Assembly (NCBI RefSeq): GCF_003018255.1
Contig: NZ_CP027440.1
DNA length: 64,000 nucleotides
Source: Escherichia coli
GTDB taxonomy: Bacteria; Pseudomonadota; Gammaproteobacteria; Enterobacterales; Enterobacteriaceae
Direction: 5' to 3' (one strand)
In this document: piece after piece, positions 11,908 through 17,820 of the stretch
Layout: every line of letters begins with the position of its first letter
How positions within the stretch are numbered: position 1 is the stretch's first letter
The notes under the pieces: generated by a model
Database searches by the model: none
What the model saw: the letters and a program-made list of their open reading frames with translations, nothing else
What the model was told of the DNA's origin: nothing
Made by a program: the position numbers and the translations under genes

Positions 11908-13446
11908 ATGCAACAGCAAAAACCGCTGGAAGGCGCGCAACTGGTCATTATGACGATTGCGCTGTCACTGGCGACATTCATGCAGGTGCTGGACTCCACC
12001 ATTGCTAACGTGGCGATCCCCACTATCGCCGGGAATCTGGGCTCATCGCTCAGCCAGGGAACGTGGGTAATCACTTCTTTCGGGGTGGCGAATGCCATCT
12101 CGATCCCGCTTACCGGCTGGCTGGCAAAGCGCGTCGGGGAAGTGAAACTGTTCCTCTGGTCCACCATCGCCTTTGCTATTGCGTCGTGGGCGTGTGGTGT
12201 CTCCAGCAGCCTGAATATGCTGATCTTCTTCCGCGTGATTCAGGGGATTGTCGCCGGGCCGCTGATCCCGCTTTCGCAAAGTCTATTGCTTAATAACTAC
12301 CCGCCAGCCAAACGCTCGATCGCGCTGGCGTTGTGGTCGATGACGGTGATTGTCGCGCCAATTTGCGGCCCGATCCTCGGCGGTTATATCAGCGATAATT
12401 ACCACTGGGGCTGGATATTCTTCATCAACGTACCGATTGGCGTGGCGGTGGTGTTGATGACACTGCAAACCCTGCGCGGACGTGAAACCCGCACCGAACG
12501 GCGGCGGATTGATGCCGTGGGGCTGGCACTGCTGGTTATTGGTATCGGTAGCCTGCAGATTATGCTCGACCGCGGTAAAGAGCTGGACTGGTTCTCATCA
12601 CAGGAAATTATCATCCTTACCGTGGTGGCAGTGGTGGCTATCTGCTTCCTGATTGTCTGGGAGCTGACCGACGATAACCCGATAGTCGATCTGTCGTTGT
12701 TTAAGTCGCGCAACTTCACCATCGGCTGCTTGTGTATCAGCCTCGCGTATATGCTCTACTTCGGCGCGATTGTTCTGCTGCCGCAGTTGTTGCAGGAGGT
12801 CTACGGTTACACGGCAACGTGGGCAGGTCTGGCCTCTGCGCCGGTAGGGATTATTCCGGTGATCCTGTCGCCGATTATCGGCCGCTTCGCGCATAAACTG
12901 GATATGCGGCGGCTGGTAACCTTCAGCTTTATTATGTATGCCGTCTGCTTCTACTGGCGCGCCTATACCTTTGAACCAGGTATGGATTTTGGCGCGTCGG
13001 CCTGGCCGCAGTTTATCCAGGGGTTTGCGGTGGCCTGCTTCTTTATGCCGCTGACCACCATTACGCTGTCTGGTTTGCCACCGGAACGACTGGCGGCGGC
13101 ATCGAGCCTCTCTAACTTTACGCGAACGCTGGCGGGGTCTATCGGCACATCCATCACCACCACCATGTGGACCAACCGCGAGTCGATGCACCATGCGCAG
13201 TTGACTGAGTCGGTAAATCCGTTCAACCCGAATGCCCAGGCGATGTATAGTCAACTGGAAGGACTGGGGATGACGCAACAGCAGGCATCAGGCTGGATTG
13301 CCCAGCAGATCACCAATCAGGGGCTGATTATTTCTGCCAATGAGATCTTCTGGATGTCAGCCGGGATATTCCTCGTCTTGCTGGGGCTGGTGTGGTTTGC
13401 TAAACCGCCATTTGGCGCAGGTGGCGGCGGAGGTGGTGCGCACTAA
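11908..13446 (+). CDS. emrB: MFS multidrug efflux pump
   Basis: 512 aa from ATG 11908 (MQQQKPLEG); recognised as EmrB. Confidence 0.93.
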   Translation: MQQQKPLEGAQLVIMTIALSLATFMQVLDSTIANVAIPTIAGNLGSSLSQGTWVITSFGVANAISIPLTGWLAKRVGEVKLFLWSTIAFAIASWACGVSSSLNMLIFFRVIQGIVAGPLIPLSQSLLLNNYPPAKRSIALALWSMTVIVAPICGPILGGYISDNYHWGWIFFINVPIGVAVVLMTLQTLRGRETRTERRRIDAVGLALLVIGIGSLQIMLDRGKELDWFSSQEIIILTVVAVVAICFLIVWELTDDNPIVDLSLFKSRNFTIGCLCISLAYMLYFGAIVLLPQLLQEVYGYTATWAGLASAPVGIIPVILSPIIGRFAHKLDMRRLVTFSFIMYAVCFYWRAYTFEPGMDFGASAWPQFIQGFAVACFFMPLTTITLSGLPPERLAAASSLSNFTRTLAGSIGTSITTTMWTNRESMHHAQLTESVNPFNPNAQAMYSQLEGLGMTQQQASGWIAQQITNQGLIISANEIFWMSAGIFLVLLGLVWFAKPPFGAGGGGGGAH

Positions 13447-13454
13447 GGTTGTCA

Positions 13455-13480
13455 AAGGGAGCTGCGGCTCCCTTTTTATT
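13455..13480 (+). terminator. rho-independent terminator after emrB
   Basis: Stem GGGAGC / GCTCCC with loop TGCG, followed by TTTTT. Confidence 0.7.
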
Positions 13481-13703
13481 TGCTCATTTTGCAAACGGTT
13501 GTTTTATCCACTCATTCGGTGTATCTTTTCGCCGCCCCAAACTCTTCCATTCACCATTAACCGGTTCTGAGCATTCGCTCAGGTTGTTAATTCTCTTTTT
13601 CTTTCGCCCTCGCTTTCGCGGGTGATACTCACATTTTTCTTTTAACCCCATAACTCGCACCCTCGCGGGCGTACATTTATTACACACAAAATAATGGATT
13701 ATT

Positions 13704-14411
13704 ATGAATACCCAACGAAAATACGGGAGAACCTGGCATTATCCTTTCTCCCCCGGCACCACCAGCGATGACCGCATTAATGCCGATTACTGGCAGGATT
13801 TACAGGCCATCACGCAATTGGTGCACACAGAAAAACTCGACGGTGAAAATAACTGCCTTAACCGCTACGGCGTGTTTGCCCGTTCCCATGCCGCGCCTAC
13901 GCAGTCGGCATGGACCTATAAAATTCGCCAACGCTGGCAACTGCTGAAAAACGATCTCGGCGATCTGGAGTTGTTTGGTGAAAATCTTTATGCCGTGCAT
14001 TCGATTGAATATCGCGCCCTGGAGCAGGATTTTTATCTGTTTGCCGTTCGCTGCCAGGATATGTGGCTGAGCTGGGAAGAGGTGCAGTTTTACGCCGCTC
14101 TGTTTGATTTCCCCTGCGTTCCCGAAATCTCCGGCCCGCAACCGGGGAATGATGAAAAAAGCTGGCAACGTGATTTTCTGGCGCTGACCAATGCGCGCGG
14201 CGCGTTCGATCCCTGGGATACGCAAACCGGGCAACCCTGTACGCTGGAAGGCATTGTCAGCAGGAATCGTGATGCGTTTTCCGTCGCTGACTTTTCGCAT
14301 AACGTCTTCAAGTATGTGCGCAAAAATCATGTCAAAATCACCGTCCACTGGAAACGACACTGGCAACGGGCGCGGATGGCCCATGAGTTCGATTATGGAG
14401 AACAGTCATGA
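13704..14411 (+). CDS. putative ATP-dependent polynucleotide (RNA) ligase-like nucleotidyltransferase
   Basis: 235-aa ORF; motif I KLDGEN (K44, nt 13833-13850), motif III LFGEN (about residue 91), motif IV EGIVSR (182-187), motif [10 protein letters not shown] (203-211), in ligase order and Rnl2-like spacing; call rests on motif reading only. Confidence 0.62.
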
Positions 14412-15520
14412 TTTGGCAGCTTACCGACGACAAACGCTGGTCGGCGCTACGTCAGCGTTTTAGCTGGGTTGAGGAGATGCATCACACGCCACAAGACCCG
14501 GAGCATCATGGTGAAGGTGACGTCGGCGTGCATACCGAAATGGTGCTGAACGCCCTCGTTACTCAGCCAGAATTCCAGCAACTCCCCGCTCAACAGCAGG
14601 AAGTTTTATGGGCGGCGGCGTTATTGCATGATGTTGAAAAGCGCAGCACTACCGTGCAGGAAAACGGACGTATTCAGTCGCCTGGCCATGCTCGTCGGGG
14701 CGAACTGACGGCCCGACAAATTTTATGGCGCGATATCCCAACGCCGTTCGTGCTACGCGAGCAAATTGTTGCGCTGGTGCGTCTGCATGGGTTACCGCTA
14801 TGGTTACTGGAACGTCCGGAACCGGAGCGTTTGCTGCTCACGGCTGCAATGCGCATCGACACGCGTCTGCTCGCTTTGCTTGCTCGTGCCGATCTGCTTG
14901 GTCGCCAAAGCCCGGATCAGCAATCAATGCTGGAACGCATCGATCTGTTCGAGCTGTTTTGCCATGAGCAACAATGCTGGGGAAAAATGCGCCCGTTCGT
15001 TTCTGATTCCGCACGCTGGCACTACCTGACTCATGAGCAAAGTTCTCCTGATTTTGTTCCCTGGGAGGCTGAACCTTTTGAGGTTATTTTGCTGTGTGGC
15101 TTACCGGGTATGGGCAAAGATCGCTATATCAGTGAACAGTGCCAGGGAATGGACGTTATCAGCCTTGATGATATGCGGCGGCGAATCAATGCCAGTCCGG
15201 ACGACAAAACCGCCACCGGGCGTATTGTGCAACAGGCAAAAGAAGAGGCGCGCGTTTTTTTACGCCAGAAAAAGCCGTTCATCTGGAATGCAACGAACAT
15301 TACCCGCCAGCTGCGCAGCCAGCTCATCAGTCTGTTTACGGCTTACGGCGCACGAGTAAAAATCGTTTATCTGGAAGTGCCATGGGCGCAATGGAAGCAG
15401 CAAAATGCCAGACGCGAGTATGCAGTTCCTGAAGCGGTCGTGATGCGGATGGCCTCAAGGCTGGAAGTTCCTCAACCTGATGAAGCACATAGCGTGGAAT
15501 ATCGGATGACTGACAGGTAA
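14408..15520 (+). CDS. putative bifunctional HD-domain phosphoesterase / P-loop polynucleotide kinase (HD-Pnk-like end-healing enzyme)
   Basis: 370-aa ORF whose ATG overlaps upstream stop (ATGA); N-terminal His cluster H33-H34, H42 and HD dyad H74-D75; C-terminal Walker A-like GLPGMGKD (nt 15098-15121); domain assignment by motif only. Confidence 0.6.
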
Positions 15521-15525
15521 CAAAA

Positions 15526-15552
15526 GCCGGGCGGTGTTTTCACCAGCCCGGC
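15526..15552 (-). terminator. rho-independent terminator at luxS 3' end (possibly bidirectional)
   Basis: Stem GCCGGGC / GCCCGGC around a 13-nt loop; on the minus strand followed by TTTTG; lies between convergent ORF 14408-15520 and luxS. Confidence 0.65.
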
Positions 15553-15570
15553 CTCTTCTGCTTAAACTGA

Positions 15571-16086
15571 CTAAATGTGCAGTTCCTGCAACTTCTCTTT
15601 CGGCAGCGCCAGTTCTTCGTTGCTGTTGATGCGCACGTCACGTTCCAGAATGCTACGCGCAATATCCTGCGCTTCCTGCAACGAGTGCATCTGGTAAGTG
15701 CCACACTGGTAGACGTTCAGTTCCGGGATCTGATTCTGATCCTGCACTTTCAGCACGTCTTCCATTGCCGCTTTCCAGGCATCAGCAACACGCTGCTCAT
15801 CTGGCGTACCAATCAGACTCATATAAAAACCGGTGCGGCAGCCCATTGGCGAGATATCGATAATCTCTACACCATTACCGTTAAGATGGTTACGCATAAA
15901 ACCAGCAAACAGGTGCTCCAGGGTATGGATCCCTCTTTCTGGCATCACTTCTTTGTTCGGCACGCAGAAGCGCAGATCGAACACGGTGATTGCGTCGCCA
16001 TGCGGGGTGTTCATTGTTTTCGCCACCCGAACTGCAGGCGCTTCCATCCGGGTATGATCGACTGTGAAGCTATCTAACAACGGCAT
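15571..16086 (-). CDS. luxS: S-ribosylhomocysteine lyase (autoinducer-2 synthase)
   Basis: 171-aa ORF; recognised as LuxS (HTLEHL metal-binding motif). Confidence 0.95.
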
Positions 16087-16154
16087 TTAGCCACCTCCGG
16101 TAATTTTTTTTTAAAATTTTCTGAACTCTTTCTTCCCAGGCGAGTCTGAGTATA

Positions 16155-16227
16155 TGAAAGACGCGCATTTGTTATCATCATCCCTGAATTCAGAGATGAA
16201 ATTTTGGCCACTCACGAGTGGCCTTTT
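16155..16227 (+). ncRNA. micA: MicA (SraD) small regulatory RNA
   Basis: Matches remembered MicA sequence GAAAGACGCGCAUUUGUUAUCAUCAUCCCUGAAUUCAGAGAUGAAAUUUUGGCCACUCACGAGUGGCCUUUUU; divergent from luxS; 3' hairpin plus U-run. Confidence 0.85.
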
Positions 16228-16236
16228 TCTTTTCTG

Positions 16237-17820
<1,584 letters not shown>

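Follow-up and report, generated by a model that had tools for sequence, protein, structure and literature searches.

Two-gene cassettes in which a ligase-like protein dependent on adenosine triphosphate (ATP), called LIG, is paired with an HD-domain phosphoesterase fused to a polynucleotide kinase, called HD-Pnk, have been described in Deinococcus (2007) and in Runella (2017-2018). This study was concerned with a pair of this type in Escherichia coli, at positions 13447-15570 of a 64,000-nucleotide stretch of contig NZ_CP027440.1 (assembly GCF_003018255.1), which is referred to below as the window. In Deinococcus radiodurans the operon is carried on megaplasmid MP1 and has the gene order DR_B0100 (LigB/DdrP), DR_B0099 (PARG-type) and DR_B0098 (HD-Pnk). 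DR_B0098 has 5'-kinase activity, and the K40A mutant of DR_B0100 loses adenylylation, K40 being the residue that carries adenosine monophosphate (AMP) (PMC1997131). In the gene cluster of Runella slithyformis, as given in PMC6097658, the open reading frame (ORF) of a putative ATP-dependent ligase lies immediately upstream of that for HD-Pnk, which it overlaps with its 3' end. The same paper, citing Munir and Shuman 2017, describe the Runella HD-Pnk as an N-terminal HD 2',3'-phosphoesterase with a C-terminal 5'-OH kinase.

The E. coli pair occupies the spacer between emrB, which ends at 13446, and luxS (15571-16086, minus strand). An earlier note on this stretch had described a spacer of about 2.1 kb holding two co-directional ORFs of 235 and 370 amino acids that overlap by 4 bp, and this layout was borne out. 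The spacer measures 2,124 bp, with LIG (ORF1) at 13704-14411 and HD-Pnk (ORF2) at 14408-15520, both intact and both on the plus strand. LIG, at 235 amino acids, is ligase-like and consists of the nucleotidyltransferase domain only, while HD-Pnk, at 370 amino acids, is a predicted bifunctional end-healing enzyme. The ORFs share the four bases ATGA, in which the stop of the first overlaps the start of the second, and a GGAG Shine-Dalgarno sequence stands 8 nt ahead of the HD-Pnk start; together these form a translational coupling junction (14397-14411, plus strand). The insert is absent from K-12, as had also been claimed: the emrB-luxS gap of a K-12-type genome is just 63 bp and amounts to one terminator hairpin. 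Over this segment the window does not differ from E. coli 2014C-3338 (NZ_CP027452.1; 100% identity), in which RefSeq labels LIG as 'RNA ligase family protein' and HD-Pnk as 'ATP-binding protein'. Both are real genes and not chance ORFs, since each has more than 2,000 homologues at E <= 1e-5 and the ratio of nonsynonymous to synonymous substitution rates (dN/dS) between E. coli alleles is 0.03-0.17.

The earlier note knew of no characterised E. coli system of this kind. The pair is not a new type of system. The E. coli cassette is homologous to DR_B0100/DR_B0098 and fits the description of the Runella LIG/HD-Pnk pair; a literature search found no study of this locus in E. coli. The likeness to the D. 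radiodurans operon has several parts. First, LIG and DR_B0100 share 35% identity (E 6e-26; 99.8% probability in hhalign), each of the two proteins is an adenylylation domain only, and K44 of LIG aligns with K40 of DR_B0100. Secondly, HD-Pnk and DR_B0098 align along the full length at 29% identity (residues 5-361, E 5e-33), with the same HD-then-kinase order. The earlier note's likening of the pair to the bacterial HD-Pnk family was accurate. Third, the ligase-like gene comes first in both operons. However, the Deinococcus operon has a gene for a PARG-type hydrolase between the pair, lies on a megaplasmid and is controlled by radiation, and DR_B0098 is longer (413 amino acids) and has a canonical GKS P-loop where the E. 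coli protein has GKD.

Sequence identity to Bacteroidota homologues is higher (49-59% for HD-Pnk and 52-68% for LIG), including those of Dyadobacter, which we take to belong to the same family as Runella. Runella itself was compared by its published description. A homologue search begun from the HD-Pnk of Dyadobacter gave no protein under the Runella name. As published, Runella has the same LIG/HD-Pnk architecture, and differs in having a Tpt1 gene and a methyltransferase-HIT gene beside the pair (PMC6097658). Reading of the Dyadobacter locus found no upstream gene pair like that of Runella; no search specific for Tpt1 was made.

In phage T4 (Pnkp and Rnl1) and in the bacterial Pnkp/Hen1 system, a 5'-kinase, a 3'-end phosphoesterase and an ATP-dependent ligase restore RNA that has been cut by ribotoxins, and the kinase domain of HD-Pnk is related to T4 Pnk in both fold and sequence. 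The phosphoesterase is a DxDxT (HAD-type) domain in T4 Pnkp and a calcineurin-type domain in bacterial Pnkp, whereas in E. coli HD-Pnk it is an HD domain. In addition, LIG lacks the C-terminal domains of Rnl1, Rnl2 and Rnl4, there is no Hen1 methyltransferase in the E. coli cassette, and sealing has never been demonstrated for the LIG clade. The Rnl5 ligases (NgrRnl of Naegleria gruberi and DraRnl of D. radiodurans) are also similar, in that of all structures NgrRnl matches LIG best (Foldseek E 2e-6) and both fall in Pfam family PF09414. However, LIG and NgrRnl are only 18-20% identical with a template modelling (TM) score of about 0.5, and LIG is without the Rnl5 N-terminal domain (235 amino acids against about 340). 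In Deinococcus, DraRnl (annotated 'RNA ligase (ATP)') is encoded by a gene of its own in the vicinity of the operon.

The pairing of the two genes was followed in a species scan with one genome per species, in which at least 571 species carried an HD-Pnk relative; the best 80 of these loci were examined. A LIG homologue, full-length or truncated by the contig end, was directly upstream of HD-Pnk in 79 of the 80 loci, and in the remaining one (L075) a short LIG fragment is left. In 58 of the 79 there is an overlap between the stop of LIG and the start of HD-Pnk, and in 26 of those 58 it measures 4 nt, as in the window. When the flanking ORFs of the 80 loci were clustered, no conserved neighbours besides LIG were found.

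Predicted activities of the two proteins

LIG matched the Pfam family RNA_ligase (PF09414) over model positions 2-171 of 171 (residues 38-205, E 4.4e-28) and the PHROG phage 'RNA ligase' families (E 2e-30), and NCBIfam held no family for it. Its AlphaFold2 model, with a predicted local distance difference test score (pLDDT) of 87.6, is a bare nucleotidyltransferase domain with nothing appended, and no OB or other DNA-binding domain was found in the model. The top 33 Foldseek matches in the PDB were all RNA ligases (probability 1.00, TM about 0.45-0.51), and DNA ligases ranked lower. The nearest structures were NgrRnl, Candida Trl1-LIG, T4 Rnl2 and archaeal Rnl3, with identities of 15-20%. On these sequence and model matches LIG is assigned to the covalent nucleotidyltransferase superfamily, where the earlier note had also placed it, and within this to the ATP-dependent RNA-ligase branch. 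A search of PDB sequences with LIG detected no true relative; hemocyanin and the designed repeat protein Tako8, which were returned, were rejected as spurious sums of weak repeats with per-domain E >= 0.2.

The motifs of LIG were assigned by sequence inspection. Motif I (EK44LDGEN) is present in 76 of the 79 loci and contains the predicted adenylylation site, K44 (codon 13833-13835, plus strand), at which the E. coli protein is predicted to adenylylate itself. Like motif I, motif III (FGE93N), motif IV (E182GIV) and the residues F113 and R116 show no or almost no variation across the family alignments. Of the motifs I, III, IV and V that the earlier note had listed in canonical order, the first three are conserved and motif V is atypical, as set out below.

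HD-Pnk matched AAA_33 in Pfam (residues 226-355, E 7e-32) and, weakly, HD (residues 62-139, E 0.02), with HD/HDIG signals that span residues 11-139. The matches in NCBIfam were partial and below threshold, and were to Pnkp, PSTK, CCA-adding enzyme and HDIG. The predicted model (pLDDT 92.9) has two domains. The HD phosphoesterase domain (14480-14977, plus strand; residues 25-190 approximately) is indicated by the HDIG match, by the HD region of CCA-adding enzyme and by a profile match to the A-adding enzyme 3wfo. Within it H34, H42, H74-D75 (codons 14627-14632), H94, H127 and D162 are invariant in the family alignments, and we infer that these residues are metal ligands. The polynucleotide-kinase domain (15071-15487, plus strand; residues 222-360 approximately) contains the P-loop G231-LPGMGK237-D238 (15098-15121, plus strand; residues 231-238), D254-x-x-R257 and R336. 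In a set of 37 HD-Pnk sequences H42, H74-D75, H94, H127, D162, K237, D254, R257 and R336 were all invariant. The profile matches of the kinase domain were to PSTK (the best, 7e-12), the Clostridium thermocellum Pnkp kinase (4e-10), T4 Pnk and a Mucorales RNA kinase. By fold its nearest matches were the kinase of the C. thermocellum RNA-repair Pnkp, mammalian PNKP and T4 Pnk, with a TM of 0.75 to 4gp6. HD-Pnk is accordingly read from its profiles and model as an N-terminal HD phosphoesterase fused to a C-terminal P-loop polynucleotide kinase, which is the fusion the earlier note had recognized.

We consider it probable, by a modest degree, that the E. coli pair, as a member of the bacterial LIG/HD-Pnk cassette, is a two-gene module that heals and presumably seals broken nucleic-acid ends. 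HD-Pnk would make 'dirty' break ends fit for ligation: its C-terminal P-loop domain would phosphorylate 5'-OH ends, and its N-terminal HD domain would strip 2',3'-cyclic, 3'- or 2'-phosphates. LIG, co-translated from the overlapping upstream ORF, would react with ATP at K44 to form LIG-AMP, and would presumably then activate the healed 5'-phosphate and 3'-OH ends and join them. As LIG itself carries no substrate-binding domain, it probably relies for this on HD-Pnk, on another partner or on a particular substrate. The domains, the conservation of the catalytic residues, the homology to enzymes already studied, the strict pairing of the genes and the purifying selection are shown in this study. 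The kinase, phosphoesterase and self-adenylylation activities are known from homologues, whereas the sealing step, the RNA substrate and the biological trigger are what we infer.

RNA, for instance tRNA or rRNA that ribotoxins have cut or stress has damaged, is a more likely substrate than DNA for several reasons. First, the fold of LIG is of the RNA-ligase type. Secondly, the kinase and HD domains are nearest to enzymes directed at tRNA or other RNA (PSTK and CCA-adding enzyme, respectively). Third, the cassette occurs in a huge phage, and huge phages are reported to carry RNA-repair genes that counter host tRNA cleavage (PMC7824862).

Several points weigh against a healing and sealing role on RNA. 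First, DR_B0100 and the Runella LIG both formed enzyme-AMP, yet neither sealed any DNA or RNA substrate on which it was tested (PMC1997131, PMC6097658). In the RNA repair function proposed in the earlier note the domain calls were correct, while the sealing part is assumed. Secondly, the phenotypes of the Deinococcus operon are tied to DNA-damaging agents (PMC6300522), and with these radiation data an RNA target, also part of that proposal, is not established. Third, the motif V candidate of LIG (K203-Y-V-R206-K207), assigned by inspection only, is atypical when set against K-x-K, and DR_B0100 was reported to be without motif V (PMC1997131). Fourth, the P-loop of HD-Pnk has Asp after the Lys (GKD) and not GK[ST] in 69 of the 79 loci, with GKN in three; the substitution is clade-specific and falls at a position that normally binds magnesium. 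Lastly, the cassette is dispensable, since it is missing from 4,428 of 5,426 complete E. coli genomes (about 82%) and is broken in two carriers. In CFT073 (L083, 1305-2002) LIG is annotated as frameshifted, and in O145:H28 RM13516 (L084, 2009-3121) HD-Pnk has an internal stop.

The Deinococcus phenotypes could instead reflect the mending of DNA strand breaks, with HD-Pnk acting in the manner of mammalian PNKP on the 3'-phosphate/5'-OH DNA ends left by oxidative or radiation damage and LIG serving as a partner-dependent, back-up ATP-dependent DNA ligase. We regard this role as unlikely. The D. radiodurans operon is radiation-induced and an HD-Pnk mutant is sensitive to ionising radiation (PMC6300522). 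That paper also cites Schmier and Shuman 2018, by whose title loss of HD-Pnk brings mitomycin C sensitivity. The radiation phenotype is not discriminating, because radiation also damages RNA. The kinase domain has mammalian PNKP among its best matches by fold, and the Runella HD-Pnk reportedly takes off DNA 3'-phosphates also, both of which would suit a DNA substrate. For the joining step the published results differ. DNA ligation by DR_B0100 together with DR_B0098 and PprA was seen in one study, according to PMC6300522 (where Kota 2010 is cited along with Schmier and Shuman 2018), whereas Blasius et al. saw no DNA ligated by the three operon proteins in any combination (PMC1997131). Against a role in DNA repair also stand the RNA-ligase type of the LIG fold and Pfam family, with DNA ligases ranking lower, and the lack of an OB or other DNA-binding domain in the LIG model. 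In addition, no LexA-box-like sequence was apparent by eye in the leader upstream of LIG, where no formal motif search was made.

The failure to seal could also mean that LIG joins no strands at all. It would then act as an adenylyltransferase on some other target, marking or activating it, for example making AppN 5' ends that serve as a cap or signal, or acting on non-canonical ends made by HD-Pnk, and the pair would tag or process ends. Self-adenylylation with no sealing was the outcome in two independent laboratories (PMC1997131, PMC6097658), and the make-up of LIG, which is nothing more than a nucleotidyltransferase domain and has an atypical motif V, would agree with this. Also, some cassettes are linked to enzymes of modified ends, namely Tpt1 and methyltransferase-HIT in Runella (PMC6097658), and the Deinococcus cassette is linked to the PARG-type hydrolase (PMC11833690). 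However, motifs III and IV, which are needed for the later steps of ligation, are invariant, and LIG is linked almost universally to an enzyme that makes 5'-phosphate and 3'-OH ends, which are exactly the ends that a classic ligase needs. The failed sealing may reflect the wrong substrate or an absent partner. For these reasons a LIG that does not join strands is quite improbable.

An unusual end requirement, by which LIG would be a ligase that was offered the wrong ends, would explain adenylylation without sealing in both laboratories, and we put this forward as an unlikely candidate. In one version LIG may join only 3'-OH/2'-phosphate ends, like fungal Trl1. If this were true, the cassette would be the missing source of 2'-phosphate RNA junctions for bacterial Tpt1/KptA, and we know of no substrate for the Tpt1/KptA of E. 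coli itself. The idea of a 2'-phosphate pathway was raised for Runella in PMC6097658. In the other version LIG may work only when complexed with HD-Pnk on broken tRNA, and the cassette would confer ribotoxin immunity in lineages of extraintestinal pathogenic E. coli (ExPEC); the ribotoxins may be colicins, contact-dependent toxins or anticodon nucleases triggered by phage.

Distribution and selection in E. coli and other bacteria

The cassette was found in 998 of the 5,426 complete E. coli genomes (about 18%), always as a single chromosomal copy. The carriers include sequence type 131 (ST131), avian pathogenic E. coli (APEC) O1:K1:H7, ATCC 25922, CFT073 and O145:H28. The same site is used outside E. 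coli, in five other genera of the Enterobacteriaceae: Klebsiella spallanzanii, Phytobacter, Kosakonia, an Enterobacter sp. and Superficieibacter all have the cassette in the emrB-luxS gap. No signs of a mobile element were found at the borders of the insert, which have no meaningful flanking repeats, and there is no mobility gene inside it. The GC content of the insert (0.48-0.56) is like that of the neighbouring DNA. Because the same site is occupied in five other genera and because repeats, mobility genes and an odd composition are all lacking, the emrB-luxS location is old in Enterobacteriaceae, and the lack of the cassette in most E. coli is best taken as loss or as replacement by recombination in the genes on either side.

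Two loci carry additional DNA at this site. In Kosakonia (L007, 7151-12449) and UBA3516 (L004), about 5 kb of unrelated genes separates HD-Pnk from luxS, and these encode an FkpA-like protein rich in repeats, a protein resembling 2-isopropylmalate synthase and a regulator of the AraC type. This makes the gap between emrB and luxS a variable site.

The absences and broken copies described above would be expected if the E. coli cassette were a decaying remnant that has no present function and is kept by chance in some lineages. We find this highly improbable. First, both ORFs are intact in the window, and seven other E. coli alleles translate without internal stops; six of the seven, and the record identical to the window, are intact in the RefSeq annotation also. 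Secondly, the dN/dS values against the window allele, in the range given above, are low, and the cassette is under purifying selection. Third, all catalytic residues are kept, and the same locus is occupied in the five other genera. In a further comparison, with the HD-Pnk of Klebsiella spallanzanii, an indel had put the sequences out of register, and the resulting dN/dS value was therefore discarded.

The E. coli alleles also differ among themselves. Alleles of the ATCC 25922 type have the same shortened LIG match as CFT073, with 95.9% identity, and may share its frameshift. The synonymous divergence of the window allele from most other E. coli alleles (L085-L090) is about 0.21 in LIG and 0.05-0.08 in HD-Pnk, and across the cassette only seven genomes match the window at 99% identity or above. 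The unequal divergence of the two genes and the small number of near-identical genomes suggest a recombination mosaic inside the cassette.

Relatives of HD-Pnk are also found on 57 plasmid or megaplasmid records. For example, plasmid p4782_002 of Pseudomonas aeruginosa (L092, 3023-5041) has a more remote LIG/HD-Pnk pair, with about 35% identity, between two IS21 copies. LIG homologues are present in jumbo phages, and one huge phage carries the whole cassette. In this uncultured phage (LR756500.1; L093, 1856-4059), which is 462 kb in size, LIG is fused to an N-terminal HNH-nuclease-like domain to give a protein of 364 amino acids, HD-Pnk starts 2 nt after the fused gene, and its P-loop is likewise GKD. 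Neither LIG nor HD-Pnk matched the PADLOC-DB 2.0 defence models at E <= 0.01.

Non-coding elements around the cassette

A terminator scan identified a hairpin for emrB at 13454-13475 (plus strand), AAAGGGAGC-TGCG-GCTCCCTTT, followed by a T run. The hairpin is kept in other Enterobacteriaceae loci, and it sets the cassette apart from the emrRAB transcript. The 228 nt that follow it (13476-13703, plus strand) are presumably the promoter and 5' leader of the cassette. A promoter scan of this leader found no match to the sigma-70 consensus on the plus strand.

In an alignment of seven Enterobacteriaceae loci, blocks of the leader at about 13497-13590 are conserved across genera. These blocks include GTGTATCTTTACGCCGCCCC, CTTCCATTCAC and a perfect inverted repeat, CTGAGC-N6-GCTCAG (13566-13583, plus strand), in which the stem is invariant and the loop is variable. 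No covariation was seen in this hairpin in the alignment, because its stem never varies. The repeat could thus be an RNA structure or a DNA operator, which cannot be told apart when there is no covariation.

Direct reading of the sequence between the convergent HD-Pnk and luxS genes identified a GC-rich hairpin, GCCGGGC-N13-GCCCGGC, at 15526-15552. A TTTTGT run comes after it on the minus strand, and it is probably a bidirectional terminator. The terminator scan missed this hairpin because its loop is longer than 8 nt.

Rfam was searched over 13000-16600, and the MicA small RNA was the sole match, with none in the leader. MicA lies at window positions 16156-16227 in the luxS-gshA gap, as expected for E. 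coli (RF00078, 83.9 bits).

Value of the E. coli locus

The value of the finding is practical. The E. coli genes were already annotated in generic terms, the family and its operon architecture had been described earlier, and no new kind of system is revealed. In the homologues studied since 2007 the ligase-like part charges itself with AMP, and RNA repair, DNA repair and conflict are all candidate roles for the pair in the cell. E. coli provides a tractable host in which the cassette is naturally present or absent at one fixed locus, with about 18% of genomes as carriers, including the pandemic ST131. It also provides natural single-gene knockouts, namely CFT073 without a working LIG and the O145:H28 strain without a working HD-Pnk. 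For these reasons the substrate of the ligase-like part should be easier to find in E. coli.

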